Shown here: positions 1 through 32,037 of the stretch, in pieces
Position numbering within the stretch: the stretch's first letter is position 1
How the letters are laid out: every line of letters starts with the position of its first letter
Source of the DNA: Eledone cirrhosa
Taxonomy: Eukaryota
DNA length: 64,000 nt
NCBI GenBank assembly: GCA_964016885.1
Contig: OZ024740.1
Span: forward strand, 378,572,001-378,636,000
Direction: 5' to 3'
Translations under genes and position numbers: made by a program
Notes under the pieces: generated by a model
Databases searched by the model: none
What the model saw: only the letters and a program-made list of their open reading frames with translations
What the model was told of the DNA's origin: nothing

Positions 1-458
1 CCATATTATATTTCTAGTTCTATTTCTTTTTCGGCTTTTGGAATTATTGTAATGTTTTTTATTATAGTTGTTAATGTTGTTACCGTAATTAAAATTGTTA
101 TTATTTTGGTTAGTTTGCTTATTATTATCGATGTACTTAGTTTTATCACTATATCCTGCTCTAGCTAACGCTTCATTGTAATACTGCGCTTTTTCATCAA
201 AAATATGGTACGTCAAAATTATTTATAAAACGTCAAAATTATTTATAAAACTGTTTATATATTGTATTTTATCTGACGAAGGCATGCCATATTTTTAATA
301 TGGTATCCCTGAAATATGTATAATGAAATAAATATGGTTTTATAAATATAGTTTCCATTTGTTTAATATCGTATATCTACTCCAAAAACTTGTCGAGTGC
401 TTTATATCAGTTATAAAATATTTACTTGTTGTAACCCAACAATTTTAAATAAAACTTT

Positions 459-1494: not shown

Positions 1495-1770
1495 GATGAA
1501 ATAAAAAATGTAACTGGAGTCTTATTTTTAAATAGGGAGGGTCTGTGGTTTTTCTCACATTGTGAGAAAAACCACAGACCCTCCATCTCAACTCTACTTT
1601 TGAAAAGCAGAAGAACTGCGAAACCGGTAAAGGAACCAAATAAATATATATATTTTTTTAAAAATAAGACTCCAGTTACATTTTCGATTTCATCTTATTT
1701 TCTTTATACTTTCACTCGTGTAGGACACCTCGGTTACTTTTCATTTTGTAAAAAAACCTCACTTTCTAAT
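1487..1770. mobile_element. Non-coding mini foldback element (inverted PLE-type pLTR ends); left arm internally deleted
   Basis: Hairpin centre GGTCTGTGGTTTTTCTCACA-T-TGTGAGAAAAACCACAGACC. Homologous to 25124-25478. (TA)n on both sides. Confidence 0.8.
1597..1632 (+). ncRNA. Hammerhead ribozyme, U3-A8 core variant
   Basis: CTT-TTGAAAA-GCAG(AAGAA)CTGC-GAA-ACCGGT-A-AAG: 3-bp stem I, 4-bp stem II, palindromic stem III, GUA cleavage triplet. Confidence 0.6.
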
Positions 1771-1785
1771 ATATATATATATATA

Positions 1786-2095
1786 TTAAACAAAGCGTTG
1801 AACTTCGCTACCACTTATACCACCGTCAATGGTTTAGACAGCGAAATCATCGCTCACTGTTGGAAAACCCTCCTCTTCAACGACAGAGTAGCCTGGGCAA
1901 AGGAGTCTACAACTTCAGACCTATTCGACGTCTCCATGGGATCGTTTGACAGTGCTGACGTATGTGACTTGGTTGGCCTATTTATCTTAGACATATTACG
2001 TGTTAGATTCCCGGACTTCCACACGGGAATATACCGCGACAATGGACTGACTTTATCGAGCCATAAAAGTGGTCACGATCTCGCACGCATTCTAG
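1786..2095 (+). pseudogene. Hydra-clade-like PLE reverse transcriptase fragment
   Basis: FDVSMGSFDSADVCDLVGLFIL..GIYRDNGL is homologous to FDITMGSSDSAQVTDLVGLFL..GLYRYD in the 53821-55945 ORF. The catalytic DD is changed to DN. Confidence 0.85.
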
Positions 2096-2171
2096 TATTG
2101 CCTGTGTGAAGTGACCGGGTTTCTGCGCAAGCGCGTTTGTACGGTTGTCCTTCCTGTTCCTATAACCATGC

Positions 2172-2890: not shown

Positions 2891-2940
<50 letters not shown>

Positions 2941-3013
2941 CAATATTTGTTTCGACACACGATTTCATATCAAAAACCTCGCAAAACTAATTCATCGCCG
3001 TTATGGCATTAGC

Positions 3014-6000
3014 TTGTGCCAAGCTGAAAGGTTATTGAAAGACACTGTTTTTTGTTATATAAAAACTACAATAACAACAGAACAAATCCGCTTCTTAAAA
3101 CACTGTGTTTCCTCCAAAATATACACAACAAACATATCAAAACAAGTAAATAATTTATTATTGAACAAAACACAAGCTGAACGACTAAAACACACAATAA
3201 CAGTTAATATGAAAAGAACAACATACACAAAAGTCAACGAACTTTACAGACAGAAACGCATTAACGGTAAGGAAGTCCAAAATCTCACCACACCAAACGA
3301 AAGGGATGACTTCATGAGCGTCATCCGACGTGAAACGAAATACGCCCGAAACGAATGCAATAGGCATTTCAATAAGAAATTAGAATGGATGAATAAGAAA
3401 AAGCTACAAGAAAGGAAAATAGAATATTCTCAAAAATACCCAGATAACATCAACAATATCCGTATGACTGATGTAAAACTACCGGAAGAATTTACCAATG
3501 ACCACACAGTAAATATTTATGGGAACACTTTAATCAGTGAACAAGAAAAACAAATCCTGCAGCTACCACCAAAATTTGCCATCTACAAAAAGATTAACCC
3601 TATTGAGTACAAAACGGAGCTGGAAAAGTGTTTCACAAAAATACGTTGGAATGCAAAAGTAAACAACAACAACAATAATAACGGTAGTAGTAATATAAAC
3701 AATAACTCTGAGTATAGAAATAACAGCTATAATAGTAATAGCCATAACAATAACAATAGCAGGAGAGTGAGAAATAGTAATAATGGTGATAATATTAACG
3801 ATAGACAGAACAACAACAACAACCACAATAATAATAATAATAGAAACATTAACTACAGATACAGCAGCAGCGACCACAGTAGTAATAACGGTAACAATAC
3901 GAACAACAACAACAACAACAACAACCACAGTGGTAATAATGGAAATAATACATGTAACAACATTAATGATAGACACAACAAAAACAAGAAACATAATAAA
4001 AGTAACAACCACAATGGTAGAAATAACAGTAACAACAACAATAACGGTGAAGTAAACAACAATCACAGCAACAATACATCTAGCAATCATAACAACAATA
4101 CATCTAACAATCACAGCAACAATACATCTAGCAATCATAACAACAATACATCTAGCAATCACAGCAACAATACACCTAGCAATCATAACAACAATACATC
4201 TAACAATCACAGCAACAATACACCTAGCAATCATAACAACAATACATCTAACAATCACAGCAACAATACATCTAGCAATCATAACAACAATACATCTAAC
4301 AATCACAGCAACAATACACCTAGCAATCATAACAACAATACATCTAACAATCACAGCAACAATACACCTAGCAATCATAACAACAATACATCTAACAATC
4401 ACAGCAACAATACATCTAGCAATCATAACAATAATAATAATGCTAATAATAGGAACAACAACAACCACCATAATAACAATAATAGCAACACACACAACTA
4501 TGACGATAGATATAATGACAACCCCTTAGAGAAACTATTTTTCAACCCAGCTGACAAAAAATATAAGATGGGTAATATCTATCCTACGAGGTTACCCTTT
4601 AATAAAAGAGTTTGCATACCACAACAAATAGATGACGAGACAGAGGCACAGTTCACCATAGCTAGAAATAAGATTAGACAAATAGTAGACCGGTATACTA
4701 AGAGACAGAGCAGACCAGAGGCCAAACAACTTGGGAGGAAACCTGTAGAAGGCTTGGTTAGCCTCAAGCAGCGCACAAGGGATGGTGAGGTAGTATGTCT
4801 ACCCACGGATAAGTCTGGTAGGATGTCAATAGATAGCATGCCGAACTACATCAAGGCTATGCAACCCCACATCACCAACACGAGCGAAATTGCACAGCAA
4901 ACACATGATGGGAGAGAGAAAATCCTCAACGCTCACATGATGATGTGGACCGACATCCTAAAGCCAAGCAGACGCACTGCCAACAACTTCCAGGCGTCTA
5001 ACAATGGCATACCACCCTTGTATGGGTTCCGCAAAGACCACAAGACAGTCGATGACCCGACAACAGGACCACCAACAAGACCCGTATGCGGAGCAAATAT
5101 AGCTAGCAACTACAGGATCTCCTACTTCCTCTCAATGGTTATACGCCCCATAATCAAGATGTCCCCAGATGTATGTGACAGTACAGAGGACCTCCTCAGC
5201 AGAATCAGTGAGTGCAACAAAAACAGGAACCTATCCAACTGCATAATAGGCAGCGTGGATGTGGTATCACTGTACCCATCCATTAACATTGATTTTGCTG
5301 TGGAAAAATGTGTGGAGATGATCATTGAGAGTGAGGTGGAGTTCTGCGACGTCGACACAGACGAACTGGGCCTCCTACTTAGACTTACCTACGACACTGA
5401 CTACCTAGACAGCCATGACCTTAGACGTTTCTGCCCTAGTAGACCCATAAGAGGTAGACCCCCCACCATAACCTCAATGGCTAAAAAGACTCCCATGGGA
5501 AGGTGGATTGGGTGGACCAAAGCTATACGGACCCCCCAAAACAATGATCAGGTAAGAAAAATAGTCGCACATGCAATAGGGGCTAGTATCAAAACTACCC
5601 TAAAGGGCCACATATTCAAGTTCAACGAGAAGATCTACACCCAAAATGAGTGAGCAGCCATTGGCGTCAGCATAGCTGGTGATGTTGCCAACCTTTTTAT
5701 GGTATGGTGGGAAAGGAGACTTAAAGATCTCCTTAATGAGAGCTCCATAGACCTCATCATGTGCTCTCGTTACGTAGACGATATCAATATAGTTATAAGA
5801 ACATCCTCACATAAGAGCACTAATAAGTTTGATTTAGAACGTAGCACAATGGAAAGCATCCAGCAGATAGCTAATTCCATACACCAAAGTATAACTGTAA
5901 CTATCGACTACCCTTCCAAACACACTGTATTAGACACGGAACTCTGGATTAACACTATAGACGAGAGAACCCAGATTCTCCACTCACACTATGCTAAACC

Positions 6001-6929
6001 CATGGCCTCCAAATACCTGATACTAAAAAACTCAGCAATGTCCAGTAGTGCTAAGTTTAATATTCTGATCGCAGATTTGGTACGAGTGATGAAGAATGTG
6101 TCCCGCATGTGCGACCCAACAGAAATGGAAAGACACATCCAACACTTCATCAACCGCATGCAGTTCTCTGGCTACAACCAAAGAGACAGAGTCAGAGTAT
6201 ACGAAGGAGCCATGGAGAAGTATAAGACCCTCATAGAACTGGACATAAAAGGAATTTGCCCATTATACAGGAGCAAATCATGGAATAGCTTAGATAGGGC
6301 TAGACATAAGATAGGGAAAGCCACCTCATGGTACGACAACCAGAGATACCAGAGTGTCATGTTTGTGGACGCTACCCCTGGAGGGAAATTAGCTAACCAG
6401 TGTAGAAAGGCCCTGAGAAAGACCCACTTAAAGATTAAGGTGGTAGAAAAGCCAGGAACCATCATAAAATCCCTGATCAGCAAAACCTACCCTTTTAAGA
6501 AAACCCACTGTACTAATAGGAAATGTATCATATGTAAGGTAAACCCCCGGATAAACTGTAAAACTAGAAACGTGGTCTATAGCATAAGATGTACAGAGGG
6601 TACTTGCAGAAACATGATAACAACATACATAGGCGAGACAGCTCGTAGCATAGCTGAAAGGATAGACCAACACTGGGGGGGGGGGGGGGGGACGACGACT
6701 AAAAGGACGAAAAAACGGGTCAGTACTATACGAACATGCCAGACAACAACACGGCGGTAACATAGACAACATAGAAATTAGAATAATATCTAAACATAGA
6801 AATGACCCAGCAGATAGGCAAATCAGAGAGGCCAGTGAAATAGAACTTAGAAGGCCAAGGCTAAACAGAAAGAATGAATGGAATAACAACAACACCCAAA
6901 CAAACAACACTGACCTAAGAGAAGTATAA
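3014..6929 (+). pseudogene. PLE RT plus C-terminal GIY-YIG endonuclease, disrupted
   Basis: Motifs TDKSGR, SVDVVSLYPSI, RYVDDI, VVYSIRC..YIGETARS..ER and a final LNRKNEW. The 3014 and 5699 ORFs share one frame separated by one TGA (5651-5653) at the QxxG glycine. There is a frameshift in the G run near 6675-6691. Confidence 0.92.
4061..4430 (+). repeat. In-frame 24/48-bp coding minisatellite within an Asn-rich insert (about 3661-4520)
   Basis: Largely alternating units AATCACAGCAACAATACAYCTAGC and AATCATAACAACAATACATCTAAC encode (NHSNNT[S/P]S NHNNNTSN)n. Confidence 0.95.
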
Positions 6930-7183
6930 ATAAATAAATAGATAAATAAATAAATACATACACAAGCACAATAACAACAAACACATAAACACACACTAGT
7001 AAAGATAGAATACATTAACCAATACACAGTCACCCAATCACGAACACACATCAAACAAAACACTATACACACACGCAAACGTATGCGCAAAGAAGACAAA
7101 ATAAAACAAGCAAATAAATAAATATATAAACAGACTAAATAAAGATGGCGTAGAAAATACAATGTAACGGGAGGAAACAATAG

Positions 7184-7226
7184 CACCACTGACGATGTTG
7201 CAGATGTGCAACGAAAGAACTTTGAT
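7184..7226 (+). ncRNA. Probable degenerate hammerhead ribozyme in the 3' pLTR of element A
   Basis: CTGACGA (7189-7195), perfect 6-bp stem II GTTGCA-GATG-TGCAAC, GAAA (7213-7216). Stems I and III are imperfect. Confidence 0.55.
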
Positions 7227-7518: not shown

Positions 7519-7525
<7 letters not shown>

Positions 7526-8002
7526 TAAACGGAATAGAAAATGCTGACAAATTGTTCACAGTTGAAAAATGGTTTAATTAGGAATAAAAGAGTATTAGTG
7601 ATTGTATGGGTTAGTATTCAGTTGTGGTTTTTAAGTTTTTACCGGTTGCGCATTTCTAAATGCTTTTCAAAAATAATTTTAAGATAGAGTGTCCGTGCTG
7701 TTTGCTCTGATCTGATTAGTTTTGGGAATTCTACCTGTTTTTATGTTAAAAAAAGTGGCTCCAGCGTTACTTTGGTGTTGCAAAATTTCTTGTGGTCAAG
7801 ACAATTTTGATTGGTCGGTAGAGGTCATGTGAGTGTAAAAAATTGATTTTGCGCCAAGACTGTTTTTATGTTAAAAAAGTGGCTCCAGCAACAATTCTTG
7901 TGGTCAAAACAATTTTGATTGGTCGGTAGAGGTCATGTGAATAGAAAATTGGTTTTGCGCCAAGATTGAGAAATGACTCTTTCACAACAAATGTGTGTGT
8001 GT

Positions 8003-8050
<48 letters not shown>

Positions 8051-8125
8051 TAGTAGTAGTAGTAGTAAGGTGTTCGATGTTGTGATAATGGTTAGCAGCG
8101 ATGTGTGTCAAATGGCTATTGAGAT

Positions 8126-8173
<48 letters not shown>

Positions 8174-10269
8174 CAGAGTAATTCGTGGTGGCAGGGATGG
8201 TCAGTAAGAATGTGTCTGAAAGCAATGGGGGTATTTTAGCATGTCAAAAGATATTTTTCAGCTTTTGTCTTATACGGAGAAGTGCGTGTGTGTGTATATG
8301 TGCGTATATAAGTCTCTTTGTATGTTGATGTACGCGTGTGTATGTGTGTGTGTGTATATATGTGTGTGTGTGTGTGGACCAATATTTTTTTCCCTTGGTA
8401 AAATGGTGTACATTATTCGATTTTTTTCAGTAAAATCGGTTCTCTTAATAGAACATCAAAAATCTTAACAATAAAAGGTGTGAAATGATATTCACTATAT
8501 ATATATCCACACACACACATATATTCACTATATACATATATATATATATATACATATATACACATATATACACATATATATGCACATATATTTTTTTGTG
8601 TTGCACCATAGAGCATGTGTGTTTACGTATGTCATTGTGTTTATATGTGGGTAGAGATGTGTGCTGATGTAGGTATGTATGTTGACGTGTGTATGTTGTG
8701 GGTTCGTCTTAGGGAGAAGTGTTTAGACGGGGTCCGTATTTGTTAATGAAGTAAGATTCCTTGCTGATGCGCTGGGTGTGGGTGGCATTATCTTTAAATT
8801 TGTAGAGGGGAAAGATTCTGAAGTTGGGATGATTTTGGGCGGCACAGGTATCAATCTGTTCACTCAGTGGTATTTTCCTGTATTCCCGTATTTTAATTTG
8901 GGATCTATGGACAGTCATGCGTTGGCGGAGGCTGTTTTTGGTGTGGCCTATGTATTGTTCTCGACAACCTGAACAAGTTAATACATATATTAGATTTTCC
9001 GATGCACATGTGAAATTGTGTTTTACTATAAAACGTTGTCCATCTTTGAAATAGAATTCCGAACCCTCTATTAGGTTGATGCAAATGCCACAGTTGGGTC
9101 TATCGCATTTTTTTTTACTGTGGGATTTGTTGTTGTGGTTGACAGTACTTTGGCATGTGTTAAGATGTTTTTCATTGACTTGGATTGTCTTTTGCTCTTT
9201 ATGATATCGTGTGTTCGTAGAATTCGGTTCATTCTATGGTCCTTTTTCAATACAGGGATGTTCTGGAGGATGGTGTCAAAGGCCTCATTGTTGAGGGGGT
9301 TGTGTGTGGAGATGTATGGAAGAGCTTTTAGTTTTGGTTGATTTACTTTAGGGTGTCTAAGGTCCTGGGTACTGAGTTTTAGGGCACGTTGGATTCCATT
9401 GTCAATTAGTGATGCAGGGTAGTCCCTGCCTATGAGGGTGTCCTTTAGTTCTTGTAGCCGTAAGTAGCAGATGTTTTTATTGGAGACTATAGTACAGATT
9501 CTCTTGGCTAGGTTGTAGGGAATATTAATTTTAACGTGTCTAGGGTGGCAAGAGTTGAAGGGGAGATATTGCTTGGAGTCTGTGGGCTTGTAGTATATGT
9601 CTGTTTCTATTTTTTTGTTATGGATCTTAATGAGGATGTCGAGGAAGGGGAGTTGTTGATGGCTGTATTCCATCGTGAAGTTAATATTTGTGTTGAGCCC
9701 ATTTATAAGGGTGTGAAATTCTTTAAGTTTTTCGGTGTTTTCGTGCCAAAGGATGAAGCAGTCATCTAGATATCGCTTCCAGTTCCTTTCAATGTGTAAG
9801 TGGAGGGTGTTTCCAAATTTGTTTAGGACTTTAGTGTAGAGGGTGATTTCCAGGTATCCCATGACTAGGTTGGCATAAGTGGGGCTGTTTTCGTTCCCAT
9901 AGCGGTCTCAGATTTCTGCCTGTAGGGTTTGTTATTGAAAACGAAGTAATTGTTCTCCAAGATAAATTTGAGTCCCTCTATCACGAATTCTTTTTTGATG
10001 CGTTGTGGGAGTTCATTGTGGAAATTATCCAGCCAGAATTGGATAGCTTCTATTCCTAGGTTGTGGGGGATGTTGGAGTATAGGTTGACTACATCGAACG
10101 TCACTAGTAGGGTTTGTTCAGGAAGTGGCATATTAGGGAGGTGATTGAGCATATCTAGGTCGTCCCTTATATAGCTTTTGATGTGCTTGAGGAAGGGTTT
10201 GAGAAGGGTATCAATGAAGTTGCTAAGACGGTGCGTTTCGCAAGCGGGGCCTGCTATTATAGGTCTTAA
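7519..10269 (-). mobile_element. Inverted 5'-truncated copy of Neptune-like PLE B
   Basis: Near-identical reverse complement of 13003-15780, with RYLDDC and the GIY-YIG region. Sharp junction at 10269/10270. It lacks the roughly 35-nt 3' tail. Confidence 0.95.
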
Positions 10270-10314
10270 CTGCTAACCATTATCACAACATCGAACACCT
10301 TACTACTACTACTA

Positions 10315-10429
<115 letters not shown>

Positions 10430-10966
10430 TATTTGTTGTGAAAGAGTCATTTCTCAATCTTGGCGCAAAACCAATTTTCTATTCACATGACCTCTACCGA
10501 CCAATCAAAATTGTTTTGACCACAAGAATTGTTGCTGGAGCCACTTTTTTAACATAAAAACAGTCTTGGCGCAAAATCAATTTTTTACACTCACATGACC
10601 TCTACCGACCAATCAAAGTTGTTTTGACCACAAGAAATTTTGCAACACCAAAGTAACGCTGGAGCCACTTTTTTAACATAAAAACAGGTAGAATTCCCAA
10701 AACTAATCAGATCAGAGCAAACAGCACGGACACTCTATCTCAAAATTATTTTTGAAAAGCATTTAGAAATGCGCAACCGGTAAAAACTTAAAACCACAAC
10801 TGAATACTAACCCATACAATCACTAATACTCTTTTATTCCTAATTAAACCATTTTTCAACTGTGAACAATTTGTCAGCATTTTCTATTCCGTTTACCAAT
10901 ATATAATAACTTGTGTGTTACACCTCTATTCTTTTAACTATCATATCCTCACACGAGATACAGAAA

Positions 10967-12277
10967 ATGCCAACAAAAACGGATACAACCCTCATCAACT
11001 CAAATGAAGAGATCCTACAGGAACTCAAGAAAATCAACACCAACCTATCTTTGCTGGTCGACAAACTTGACTCCACAAATAAGGAAACCGCCACCGGATA
11101 CAAACCCTCCGAAATCGGCGACAAACTCCAAAACCTTTGCGATACTATCCTAACTATGTTCACTACTACCAACCCAGGAAAAACCAACGAAGAACCATGT
11201 GAGATTGATTCACACAAAATGAAAATTCGAACAATTCCAAAATGGAACAAATCCCTCAGAGACAGAAAGTTCTCATTCTGGAAGATGATACAAAATCACA
11301 ACAAAGCAGAGATATATGAAAAATGGCTTAACTCAACCCCTCTAACTCTCCCCCGTAAACTACAAATTAAGTCCATTCCAAATGAACCCGAACCTCAAAG
11401 ACACCTTAGGGAAAGAATGGAATTGGAAAAAATGAAGACAGAAATTGAACTTCTTAAACTGAGGGCCCACACAAATGAGGAAAAAATCAAAACCATCGAT
11501 GAAGAGATCCTTCTGGAAATCAACAACAAAACTGAAGGCCCCAAGGTAGAGAAGATCTCCAAATTATGGAAAGGGGACTGCAACAGAGAAGAACTGAAAT
11601 CCCTTCAACGCTGGGAAAAACGTGCCGCTTGGTTCCTACACTATGAATCGACTTTTCAAACGGATTACACCTCCAATAACCCGTTCATAAAAATAGGAAA
11701 ACCCATAACTGAACCGCACAACAACTTCTCAAACCCCCAAGCCTCTAACAAACGAAGAAGGAAGCACCACACCGAAGATGAACTTCCCAACCTCGCTACC
11801 ATAAAAAGGAACAAAAACCCAAGAAATCATCTCCCCCAGAATGACATTTACAACTTTCCCCCTTCAAGGAGACACCATACCAAATCACTCAACTACTACG
11901 CGGATGCCTCATCGTCAAACATAGGGAAAAGATACCACCGCCATGATAGATGTAACAACTTCCCCGCTCCAAGGGGACAGCAAGGTAATTACCATTTTCT
12001 CAACTCTCGCTTCCACAATACACAACAAACCCACACCACACGATACAACCAACAACGTAGGCCACTTATAACACCACAATACAACATGGCACATAGAAAC
12101 ACACACCCATACTCGCAGTACAGGAACACCCCATTCAATCTACAACCACCAACCTGAACCACATTTTACAACAACAAGGAATATAACAAACACAGGAGAC
12201 CACTTAACATCAGCAGACAACCCCTCTACCCCAATCATTTTTTAGACACAGCACACAGATACAGGCAAACAAAATAA
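10967..12277 (+). pseudogene. Upstream ORF1 of PLE B (coiled-coil-like N-terminus, basic/His-rich tail) with one internal TGA
   Basis: ATG at 10967; heptad-like LEKMKTEIELLKLRAHTNEEKIKTIDEEIL. The frame stays open past TGA 12155-12157 to NHFLDTAHRYRQTK-TAA at 12277. Confidence 0.7.
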
Positions 12278-14565
12278 CACAAGACAGGGAGGAGAAACCG
12301 ATAGTAATAAAAATTATCAATCTTACTAGTGCAGAACCAACATCCAACCTTATCAACTTACTCTCCAAAGGTCTTAAATTCACACCGACCCCACTACGTC
12401 CTAACTACTATGAAATGAAGGAAGACATCACAGACTTCTGTAGAAAGTTACGACTTAATGAACAACTATTCGACCAGTACAATGAGGATGAATCATTAGC
12501 CAGAAATAGAAGCAATTACACCCCTTCAAAAGGTAGAAATAAAATCCTGGACGAATTCTGTGAACACATCACAAACTTCCCTTACCAACACTTGCACGGA
12601 CAAAAACACAAGCCAAACCTCAACAAGAAAGAATGGGAAGAATTAAATAGATTAAAAAACGACAGAACCATTACAATTAAAGAGGCTGATAAAGGGAGTA
12701 CAGTAGTCCTAATGGAGACAGAATTCTATATCAACTTAGCGCTCTCCACTTTGGAAAACGAAACATACTACGAAAAGGCTGAACACTACAATCAACAGAA
12801 AATTATGAGAAACCTAAAAACTCTAATCAACCAATACAAAGAAGGACTCACTAACAAGGAATTCAGCTTCATCACAGACATCACAAGTAAATCCAGCCTT
12901 TTCTACGGTATCCCTAAAGTACATAAAAGCGAATCAATAAGTAAGGCATGCAAGGAAGCCACAGACATAGTCATCAATGTCCCCTCACCCAATGATCTCA
13001 AATTAAGACCTATAATAGCAGGCCCCGCTTGCGAAACGCACCGTCTTAGCAACTTCATTGATACCCTTCTCAAACCCTTCCTCAAGCACATCAAAAGCTA
13101 TATAAGGGACGACCTAGATATGCTCAATCACCTCCCTAATATGCCACTTCCTGAACAAACCCTACTAGTGACGTTCGATGTAGTCAACCTATACTCCAAC
13201 ATCTCCCACAACCTAGGAATAGAAGCTATCCAATTCTGGCTGGATAATTTCCACAATGAACTCCCACAACGCATCAAAAAAAAAATTCGTGATAGAGGGA
13301 CTCAAATTTATCTTGGAGAACAATTACTTCGTTTTCAATAACAAACCCTACAGGCAGAAATCTGAGACCGCTATGGGAACGAAAACAGCCCCCACTTATG
13401 CCAACCTAGTCATGGGATACCTGGAAATCACCCTCTACATTAAAGTCCTAAACAAATTTGGAAACACCCTCCACTTACACATTGAAAGGAACTGGAAGCG
13501 ATATCTAGATGACTGCTTCATCCTTTGGCACGAAAACACCGAAAAACTTAAAGAATTTCACACCCTTATAAATGGGCTCAACACAAATATTAACTTCACG
13601 ATGGAATACAGCCATCAACAACTCCCCTTCCTCGACATCCTCATTAAGATCCATAACAAAAAAATAGAAACAGACATATACTACAAGCCCACAGACTCCA
13701 AGCAATATCTCCCCTTCAACTCTTGCCACCCTAGACACGTTAAAATTAATATTCCCTACAACCTAGCCAAGAGAATCTGTACTATAGTCTCCAATAAAAA
13801 CATCTGCTACTTACGGCTACAAGAACTAAAGGACACCCTCATAGGCAGGGACTACCCTGCATCACTAATTGACAATGGAATCCAACGTGCCCTAAAACTC
13901 AGTACCCAGGACCTTAGACACCCTAAAGTAAATCAACCAAAACTAAAAGCTCTTCCATACATCTCCACACACAACCCCCTCAACAATGAGGCCTTTGACA
14001 CCATCCTCCAGAACATCCCTGTATTGAAAAAGGACCATAGAATGAACCGAATTCTACGAACACACGATATCATAAAGAGCAAAAGACAATCCAAGTCAAT
14101 GAAAAACATCTTAACACATGCCAAAGTACTGTCAACCACAACAACAAATCCCACAGTAAAAAAAAATGCGATAGACCCAACTGTGGCATTTGCATCAACC
14201 TAATAGAGGGTTCGGAATTCTATTTCAAAGATGGACAACGTTTTATAGTAAAACACAATTTCACATGTGCATCGGAAAATCTAATATATGTATTAACTTG
14301 TTCAGGTTGTCGAGAACAATACATAGGCCACACCAAAAACAGCCTCCGCCAACGCATGACTGTCCATAGATCCCAAATTAAAATACGGGAATACAGGAAA
14401 ATACCACTGAGTGAACACATTGATACCTGTGCCGCCCAAAATCATCCCAACTTCAGAATCTTTCCCCTCTACAAATTTAAAGATAATGCCACCCACACCC
14501 AGCGCATCAGCAAGGAATCTTACTTCATTAACAAATACGGACCCCATCTAAACACTTCTCCCTAA
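12238..14565 (+). pseudogene. Neptune-like RT, Cys linker and GIY-YIG ORF with frameshifts
   Basis: LLSKGLKFTPTP, ADKGS, GIPKVHK, LRPII, FDVVNLYSNI, RYLDD, CDRPNCGIC, NLIYVLTCSGC..YIGHT..LRQR..H. Frameshifts occur in A runs near 13276-13285 and 14158-14166. Confidence 0.92.
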
Positions 14566-15097
14566 GACGAATCCACAACATACACACGTCAACATACATA
14601 CCTACATCAGCACACATCTCTACCCACATATAAACACAATGACATACGTAAACACACATGCTCTATGGTGCAACACAAACAAATATATGTGCATATATAT
14701 GTGTATATATGTGTATATATGTATATATATATGTATATAGTGAATATATGTATGTGTGTGTATATATATAGTGAATATCATTTCACACCTTTTATTGTTA
14801 AGATTTTTGATGTTCTATTAAGAGAACCGATTTTACTGAAAAAATCGAATAATGTACACCATTTTACCAGGGGGAAAAAATACTGGTCCACCCCCTCCCA
14901 CACACACACATATACACACACACACATACACACGCGTACATCAACATACAAAGAGACTTATATATACACACACACACACACACGCACTTCTCCGTATAAG
15001 ACAAAAGCTGAAAAATATCTTTTGACATGCTAAAATACCCCCCCATTGCTTTCAGACACATTCTTACTGACCATCCCTGCCACCACAAATTACTCTG

Positions 15098-15187
<90 letters not shown>

Positions 15188-15269
15188 ACACACACTTATC
15201 TCAATAGCCATTTGACACACATCGCTGCTAACCATTATCACAACATCGAACACCTTACTACTACTACTA

Positions 15270-15308
<39 letters not shown>

Positions 15309-15808
15309 TATTTGTTGTGAAAGAGTCATTTCTCAATCTTGGCGCAAAACCAATTTTCTATTCACATGACCTCTACCGACCAATCAAAATTGTTTTGACC
15401 ACAAGAATTGTTGCTGGAGCCACTTTTTTAACATAAAAACAGTCTTGGCGCAAAATCAATTTTTTACACTCACATGACCTCTACCGACCAATCAAAGTTG
15501 TTTTGACCACAAGAAATTTTGCAACACCAAAGTAACGCTGGAGCCACTTTTTTAACATAAAAACAGGTAGAATTCCCAAAACTAATCAGATCAGAGCAAA
15601 CAGCACGGACACTCTATCTCAAAATTATTTTTGAAAAGCATTTAGAAATGCGCAACCGGTAAAAACTTAAAACCACAACTGAATACTAACCCATACAATC
15701 ACTAATACTCTTTTATTCCTAATTAAACCATTTTTCAACTGTGAACAATTTGTCAGCATTTTCTATTCCGTTTACCAATATATAATAACTTGTGTGTTAC
15801 ACCTCTAT

Positions 15809-15860
<52 letters not shown>

Positions 15861-24682: not shown

Positions 24683-25259
24683 GATTAATTTTTATTGTTA
24701 TTGTTAATGTTCGATTTGTTGATTGTATGTACATGAAACTAAAACATAACCGAACCATACCATCCTTAAGATCAACAGTATACAATTAGTACCCACATGT
24801 TTGCTCCAAACGCTGAACCTCATTATTATTTAGGAGCTCTCATGGTAAACGCACAACCTAAACATAGAACTGCATCTAAAAGATTGGCCCTTCTCTTTAC
24901 CTTACAACTGTCTTTCACTTCAAATCCTGTTTTGTGTTTGTCAGCTTTCTTAACAGAAAACTGGTATTTATGTTTTGTTCGTGTTTTGACTCTATTTCTA
25001 TTAATTTTATTATCATTCTTTACTTGATATTTTTGTTATCTTTCAGAGGGTGTTAAATCATACTTCTGGTTTATGTAAATATTTTTTTTCGGTGTAGTTA
25101 CTTTCCCTATATATATATATATATTAGAAAGTGAGGTTTTTTTTACAAAATGAAAAATAACCGAGGTGTCCTACACGAGTGGAAGTATAAAGAAAAAGGG
25201 ATGAAATCGAAAATGCAACTGAAGTCTTATTTTTTTTTAAAATATATATTTATTTGGTT

Positions 25260-25297
25260 CCTTTACCGGTTTCGCAGTTCTTCTGCTTTTCAAAAGG
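25260..25297 (-). ncRNA. Hammerhead ribozyme, U3-A8 variant (minus strand)
   Basis: Exact reverse complement of 25367-25404. Confidence 0.65.
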
Positions 25298-25366
25298 TGA
25301 GTTGAGATGGAGGGTCTGTGGTTTTTCTCACTGTGAGAAAAACCACAGACCCTCCATCTCAACTCA

Positions 25367-25404
25367 CCTTTTGAAAAGCAGAAGAACTGCGAAACCGGTA
25401 AAGG
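25367..25404 (+). ncRNA. Hammerhead ribozyme, U3-A8 variant
   Basis: CCTT-TTGAAAA-GCAG(AAGAA)CTGC-GAA-ACCGGT-A-AAGG. Confidence 0.65.
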
Positions 25405-25471
25405 AACCAAATAAATATATATTTTTAAAAAAAATAAGACTTCAGTTGCATTTTCGATTTCATCCCTTTTT

Positions 25472-32037
<6,566 letters not shown>

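Follow-up and report, generated by a model that had tools for sequence, protein, structure and literature searches.

A probable pair of head-to-head Penelope-like element leader copies with a U3-A8 hammerhead in the genome of Eledone cirrhosa

Among the Penelope-like elements (PLEs) that carry an endonuclease (EN+), those of the Neptune and Nematis type combine an RT with a C-terminal GIY-YIG nuclease and have a hammerhead in the pLTR (Craig et al. 2021, PMC8557442). They insert into (TA)n targets, one copy being inverted and 5'-truncated and only one end bearing a tail. In this account a CX2-5CxxC linker together with microsatellite targets marks the two clades, and the tail, a concept also used by Frangieh et al. 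2024 (PMC11167929), measures 30-40 nt. The hammerheads of PLEs are minimal type I motifs with a short stem I and a palindromic stem III that needs a dimer (Cervera and De la Pena 2014, PMC4209133). The same authors report about 1,300 heterogeneous U3-A8 hits in Schistosoma PLEs including Cercyon, which came up only after the descriptor had been altered, as well as pairs on opposite strands at distances of 100-700 bp; thus, neither U3-A8 in PLE hammerheads nor the opposite-strand pairing is new. Natural cores in which C3-G8 is replaced by U3-A8 are also in print in Perreault et al. 2011 (PMC3088659), as sporadic cases, with the statement, citing earlier work, that U3-A8 is active in vitro. The Poseidon protein of Anolis cuts and extends both target strands, its RT starts at two internal sites that bound the tail, the template is uncut RNA, and the hammerhead cleaves only with the protein (PMC11167929); as described there the start sites lie inside the ORF, the core is C3-G8 and the two sites are not linked to inverted pairs. 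Non-LTR retrozymes and viroid-like RNAs offer a further comparison, since they are small, non-coding, carry type I hammerheads and have kinship to PLE pLTRs. Literature searches on octopus Penelope hammerheads found nothing on point, and a C3U/G8A double change gave no match under that wording and one paper under the term U3-A8.

Here, we analyzed a window of 64,000 nucleotides of Eledone cirrhosa DNA (contig OZ024740.1, positions 378,572,001 to 378,636,000), taken from a 3.0-Gb genome with many TA repeats and retroelements. The original prediction for this window was a near-perfect 293-bp palindrome with a 1-nt loop and without an ORF. Such a palindrome is present at 25186-25478 with 98.98% self-complementarity, perfect 93-bp arms (25239-25425) and a single central base, and the stop-free frames that cross it are TA-repeat read-through only. 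The left 62 bp have no palindrome partner and are part of the minus arm alone, and TA runs border the whole foldback on both sides (Table 1). A complete type I layout with a TTGAAAA core had been claimed for each arm, and all elements were located on both. On the plus strand stem I consists of CCTT (25367-25370) and AAGG (25401-25404), the core occupies 25371-25377, stem II pairs GCAG with CTGC across an AAGAA loop, and GAAA (25391-25394), ACCGGT (25394-25399) and A17 (25400) follow, in the usual hammerhead numbering. The claim of hammerheads on both strands stands insofar as each strand has the motif, but there is only one sense ribozyme per strand, the arms being one sequence and its complement. 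The diverged copy noted at 1597-1632 does have the same core, and its stem I is only 3 bp long (CTT/AAG). A comparison with Rfam 15 gave no hammerhead family among the best 150 of 516 matches, and only below-threshold matches to miRNA hairpins. We propose, with a probability of about 0.8, that the foldback consists of two copies of an EN+ PLE 5' leader joined head to head, likely made in one RT-driven insertion into (TA)n, with the U3-A8 hammerhead carried along uncut. In this reading the foldback is ordinary retroelement debris, a by-product of insertion, and not a viroid-like RNA.

Table 1. Features of the foldback and of related elements in the window
Feature	Position	Strand	Remarks
Long arm	25124..25331	-	PLE 5' leader copy that begins 68 nt before the predicted cut and extends as far as the distal 3' end point (~+141), ~61-nt tail included
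PLE tail	25124..25185	-	on the long arm only; between 3' end points +80 and +141
Short arm	25333..25478	+	same leader; its 3' end point is the proximal one (~+80), within a TA run
Head-to-head junction	25326..25338	.	base 25332 at the centre; falls short of the fixed 5' edge -73 (CAGATGTG) by a few bases
Type I minimal hammerhead layout, U3-A8 core	25367..25404	+	predicted cut 25400/25401
Same hammerhead layout on the long arm	25260..25297	-	predicted cut 25264/25263
(TA)n target run, left	25104..25123	.	from sequence
(TA)n target run, right	25479..25540	.	runs on for kilobases as TA/TATG repeat
Second foldback, same family, older subfamily	1500..1770	+	deletion in the inverted arm; hammerhead core 1600-1606
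Family B hammerhead (U3-A8, C13)	10749..10785	+	in the leader of element 10910-14565
Further family B hammerhead copies	15628-15664 (+), 7637-7673 (-)		from motif scan of the window

The prediction had also called for an autonomous PLE that shares this terminus, and locus L055 supplies one. It runs from an arm (7717-7508) through ORF1, which starts about 170 nt past the cut, RT and GIY-YIG to a second arm copy (2802-2660); the two copies have further upstream sequence in common, as a pLTR at both ends with the hammerhead inside. The long arm of the foldback matches the first copy, immediately upstream of ORF1, at 97.6%. In locus L054 a frame of 770 aa bordered by arm sequence matches RVT_1 at 288-436 (Pfam, E 5e-07) and GIY-YIG at 677-767 (E 7.6e-05), which is the RT to C-terminal nuclease order of EN+ PLEs. 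Its linker between RT and EN reads KKCGRSNCGTC (CX4CX2C, as in PMC8557442), and TA runs stand at the insertion ends. The parent is an endonuclease-bearing PLE of the Neptune/Nematis type, as judged by linker and targets; the RT tree includes no named references of either clade. Relatives at E<=1e-20 number 812, and the first ORF has at least 150 scored copies in this genome. ORF1 measures 400 aa in 20 of 29 copies and overlaps the RT frame at a T-TTT-TTA heptamer (~6352-6338 on the minus strand of L055, ~12231-12245 on the plus strand of the window), with TTTTTTA at the matching place in L202 (~1330). The heptamer is in the right frame for -1 ribosomal frameshifting, its AATCATTTTTTAGAC context is found in the sister family B as well, and a programmed -1 frameshift is predicted for the overlap. 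A separate 400-aa ORF1 before the RT and very many leader-only insertions distinguish the family from the PLEs described in PMC8557442, as does the length of the tail.

Two other PLE types are present in the window. Beside the second foldback, at 1792-2106 (+), lies an RT fragment that was considered as parent and rejected, since it has no match to the parent RT and 34% identity to a different RT in L054. It belongs to another PLE type, probably Naiad-like by its sequence (FDVSMGSFD...). At 2903-6760 (+) lies a third PLE type with a long Asn-rich ORF insert, an in-frame stop at 5651-5653 and a GIY-YIG, and a C3-G8 minimal hammerhead-like motif stands in its 3' region (~7145-7190). PLE RTs with hammerheads were also seen in 54 loci (L275-L328) in records of bacterial genomes, most of them MAGs recovered from animal hosts; these are most likely host DNA in bins.

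The U3-A8 core is a property of the whole family. Genome counts were made with exact sequence patterns, and the motif pattern leaves positions 7 and 8 free. With 11,012 matches in the genome and none in the reversed control, the motif is not a product of chance. C3 occurs in 42 of these copies, all with A8, and position 8 differs from A in 38 (15 G, 13 C and 10 T, counted from the list). C3-G8 is found in none of the 11,012 and U3-A8 is thus the fixed state of the family; a pattern search for C3-G8 in its GC..GC/CCGG frame found no motif anywhere in this genome. The rare deviating copies look like scattered single mutations. Hence the view that the core did not arise by independent decay has held up, and the mostly CTGANGA copies that such decay would have left are absent. 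The expectation that CUGANGA-based searches would miss the family is also borne out, as the U3-A8 core lies outside such descriptors: a narrow C3-G8 descriptor finds 123 matches in the genome (44 in the reversed control), whereas U3-A8 matches exceed 22,000, although that descriptor misses C3-G8 families with other stem III shapes, which a relaxed scan brought up. Searches restricted to CUGANGA therefore undercount PLE hammerheads. Compared with the Schistosoma motifs of PMC4209133, U3-A8 is here fixed in two young, homogeneous families, there is no extra base between 9 and 10.1, and the sister family adds C13. Unlike the sporadic cases in PMC3088659, the motif here would act in a minimal dimer context with a 4-bp stem I. 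Canonical C3-G8 type I hammerheads of another repeat family, with an 8-bp AT-rich stem I and a long stem II, lie elsewhere in the window at 265-325 (+), 56828-56890 (+) and 52465-52525 (-).

Covariation of positions 3 and 8 cannot show inside a family that is fixed for U3-A8, and we looked at it between families. In 128 loci of related PLEs from other organisms, scanned with positions 3 and 8 left free, the coding strand gave 25 C-G and 12 U-A hits, with 4 hits scattered on the other strand. The 37 sense-strand hits, which amount to about 18 C-G and about 6 U-A distinct motifs because loci overlap and pLTRs are repeated, include no mismatched pair. A relaxed scan of 19 close loci found 6 C-G and 2 U-A. 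The loci that have ORF1 and RT in common with the parent family (L202 and L211) are C3-G8, and an identical CCGG palindrome lies ahead of ORF1 in the corresponding position. Both core states also occur in sister subfamilies of a second repeat family of this genome with a longer stem III (L050 and L019 versus L059 and L126, the motif of L126 being at ~1960); L059 is a head-to-head pair as well (~250-540). On an RT tree of 27 families, 9 with U3-A8 and 18 with C3-G8 are scattered, the state changes 7 times, at least 3 of them forced by well-supported branches, the labels are no more clustered than in shuffles (163 of 500 as low), and a single U3-A8 clade is rejected (p-AU 2e-5). This is a quick tree that omits L211 (short), L260 and L271 (near-duplicates), and L261, L264, L270 and L282 (hammerhead not assignable to one ORF). 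The stems show compensatory changes between families, and the other core positions, the stem II pairing and the ACCGGU palindrome are kept. Three low-copy U3-A8 families (L156, L157 and L165) have the same CCGG palindrome with stem II GCT/AGC or GCTA/TAGC, and no PLE ORF within their 3-kb loci. Taken together, the paired 3-8 hits, the sister subfamilies, the label changes on the RT tree and the stem covariation uphold the original suggestion that the double change is covariation, at the level of PLE families and not within one.

The sister family, which we term B, is represented by an element at 7523-15815 with an inverted shortened copy on its left and three pLTR copies. It contains a 1,349-bp perfect inverted repeat (8536-9884 / 13390-14738) and has a short tail at the left end and a longer one at the right. 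Its RT is 52-58% identical to that of the parent family, and when a 381-bp query was compared with its leader only 66 nt around the hammerhead aligned (75.8%). The family B motif has 11,268 genome matches and a change of A13 to C (GCAA for GAAA); position 13 is C in 97, A in 2 and G in 1 of 100 matches listed. C13 is either a tolerated core variant or the mark of a dead ribozyme in a successful family. The A13C change, like GCAA/A13 variants of the catalytic core in general, was not found in the literature searched. Work by Lunse et al. 2017 is said to deal with PLE hammerhead variants and may cover U3-A8 or C13. The figures and one supplement of PMC4209133 may cover C13 as well. Foldbacks of this family, picked as opposite-strand neighbours among the motif matches listed, have a CAGAT edge at -75..-72 and 3' end points at +123 and +159, which gives a tail of 36 nt, and 12 of 12 pairs join a short to a long arm.

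The leader insertions of the parent family follow the same rule. A 22-mer that lies downstream of the ribozyme has 16,942 matches, and the stretches with the first 100 of these gave 116 arms after de-duplication, numbered from the cut. They form 39 head-to-head pairs and 38 singles. The 3' ends lie at +80 in 35 arms, at +141 in 63 and elsewhere in 18, nearly all in TA. A short arm is joined to a long arm in 38 of the 39 pairs (p 1.6e-11 against 0.48), and in 46 of 50 under a looser motif-based typing, so that the inverted truncated copy with a tail on one end only, as expected of a PLE, is the regular outcome. At the 5' side 57 arms end at -74..-63, where -73 forms a sharp edge; 29 arms extend upstream beyond this range, and the others end in -62..-1 (10), at 0..+4 (6) and in +5..+50 (14). 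The edge is likely the transcription start of the leader RNA, judging from DNA ends only, and its CAGAT presumably reads as Initiator-like. Since the 5' ends are piled up 63-74 nt upstream of the predicted cut, the templates were mostly uncut RNA. Loose ends in contigs from three sequencing runs show the same end points. The genome holds about 1,690 symmetric head-to-head junctions near -73, whose sequences vary and use tiny palindromic microhomologies. The two arms of a pair agree at three diagnostic sites in 50 of 50, 25 of 25 and 40 of 43 cases (chance 0.54, 0.73 and 0.38).

Is the hammerhead active? The motif has stems I-III and a core N3 U G A N N8 A / G A A A / U H with 3 and 8 paired, which is the type I layout. 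Its stem I has only 4 bp, and stem III forms only as a dimer, with a predicted -8.3 kcal/mol for the ACCGGU duplex. As a monomer the motif is predicted to fold only weakly, with a probability of 0.03 for stem I in the leader and +0.7 kcal/mol for the active-like form. Going by sequence and predicted folds, the motif is probably catalytic in some context, although we hold this with limited confidence: the compensated core, the covarying stems and the dimer-ready palindrome speak for it; the weak stem I, the 96 of 116 arms that reach upstream of the cut and C13 in family B speak against it. The last two points would suit a relic or protein-binding structure that no longer cleaves and in which U3-A8 is kept for the fold or the promoter, and the success of family B with C13 may mean that catalysis is dispensable. 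Two further observations favor such a relic. In PMC11167929 cleavage was unnecessary for insertion in vitro and no RNA ends were described at the cut. Here, genome-wide arm ends at the cut number 102 against a mean of 56 at four comparison positions, a ratio of 1.8 that is below the value of 2 set beforehand, in a test confounded by longer upstream patterns, microhomology and RT stalling at stem I. The same counts can be held against it, as ends are about twice as common at or just after the cut (102 at 0, 70 at +1, 75 at +2) as just before (52 at -7, 28 at -6). Moreover, the conservation of core, stem II and palindrome across families, with compensatory stem changes, speaks against a relic, and on the tree positions 3 and 8 have changed state jointly, at least 3 times and possibly as many as 7, the pair belonging to the active fold (PMC3088659). 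We therefore regard a relic as possible, if rather doubtful. Ends exactly at 0 account for about 7 of 99 junctions by eye (in a flat distribution from -23 to +6), for 6 of 31 distinct sites and for 2 of 116 arms, and cut templates would make up at most about 1-2% of insertions.

How then does a foldback arise? In the reading that we favor, the GIY-YIG nuclease would nick both strands of the TA target, and the RT would use one nick to start at the internal site +141 and the second nick to start at +80. The two cDNAs would run to the RNA 5' end at about -73, the likely transcription start CAGATG, and their ends would anneal via CATCTG/CAGATG microhomology, followed by fill-in, which would yield a head-to-head pair with a one-sided tail. 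The hammerhead would ride along uncut and would have no role in the hairpin itself. It would be a type I motif with a compensated U3-A8 core that selection on the autonomous element maintains, with slow cleavage predicted only as a dimer via ACCGGU or with help of the PLE protein. The fit to the anole biochemistry (PMC11167929) counts for priming at two sites: two internal RT starts that bound the tail, cutting and extension of both strands, and, as we infer here, an uncut template. A limit is that strand displacement or a tandem transcript would be required for the synthesis of two cDNAs from overlapping stretches of a single RNA. The main rival is a snap-back, in which a single cDNA primed at +141 would run to the RNA 5' end, fold, copy its own DNA to +80 and join the target. 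One such RT run would explain the subfamily identity of the arms, the pairing of short with long arms and the tiny palindromic microhomologies. However, among 21 pairs the short arm reaches further 5' in 13, the long arm in 6, and 2 are equal, with about 6 of these comparisons blurred by near-apex point changes or later deletions at hairpin centres. Because the arm that extends further 5' is sometimes the short and sometimes the long one, neither can simply have been copied from the other. A further reaching short arm is impossible for a copy of the long arm unless the latter was trimmed later; examples are L093 (-71 versus +2 for short and long arm), L123 (-69 versus +3) and L116 (beyond -196 versus -97). 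In addition, the +80 end is much too sharp to be accounted for by TA microhomology alone, and a longer TA run at +13..+22 has no 3' ends, although such ends went unsampled because the sampling anchor lies downstream of that run. The snap-back fits less well and is in our view unlikely, while later trimming at hairpin centres could mimic the longer 5' reach of short arms.

The weakest reading is the original one, in which the foldback is a mobile unit and its transcript a rod-like retrozyme or viroid-like RNA processed by its own ribozymes: the large number of symmetric foldbacks, the recurrence of some junction types and the non-autonomous hammerhead elements from PLE pLTRs described in bioRxiv 10.64898/2026.07.22.740005 would suit it, but junctions vary, with none like that at 25332 among the first 50 of the ~1,690 sites listed (by eye), one and the same junction type recurs on different subfamily backgrounds, the antisense arm would be transcribed first and pair with the ribozyme over 146 bp, a strand with a single sense ribozyme has no means of releasing a unit-length circle, and the 116 arms include no short head-to-tail arrays, so that we consider it highly improbable. 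A read-through transcript is predicted to fold into a 146-bp hairpin of -251 kcal/mol with the whole ribozyme paired; together with the varied junctions and the fact that most copies stem from RNA uncut at 25400/25401, this leaves the viroid-like interpretation unsupported. Non-LTR retrozymes require head-to-tail tandem monomers that give circles, whereas here there are head-to-head pairs or single arms. A viroid-like RNA with ribozymes in both polarities needs two different ribozymes that can fold out of the rod, and here one sequence and its perfect complement are fully paired in the predicted fold. A MITE or DNA foldback transposon requires equal terminal inverted repeats with fixed outer ends; here the outer ends differ (+80 versus +141) and the repeat is a retroelement leader.

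As a viroid-like foldback with a new core the locus carries little weight, both features being already in print for PLEs. What is worth keeping is the two-site pairing rule and the sister family of 11,268 motifs with its added A13C. Tentatively, the leader-only insertions might be an in vivo record of PLE integration in which the RT is primed twice per event, once per strand and start site; the ribozyme would be an active, slow U3-A8 form whose 3-8 pair has flipped repeatedly, and A13C a natural core variant, either active or a loss of catalysis carried by 11,000 copies. For the role of PLE hammerheads this genome has modest value as a test bed, since one sister family of about 11,000 copies has a compensated core and the other, of similar size, has A13C in addition. 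The anatomy of the insertions turns the in vitro model of two RT start sites and two cut strands into a countable rule. Two primings per event would, if true, account for the inverted copies of PLEs as well as for their tail at one end.
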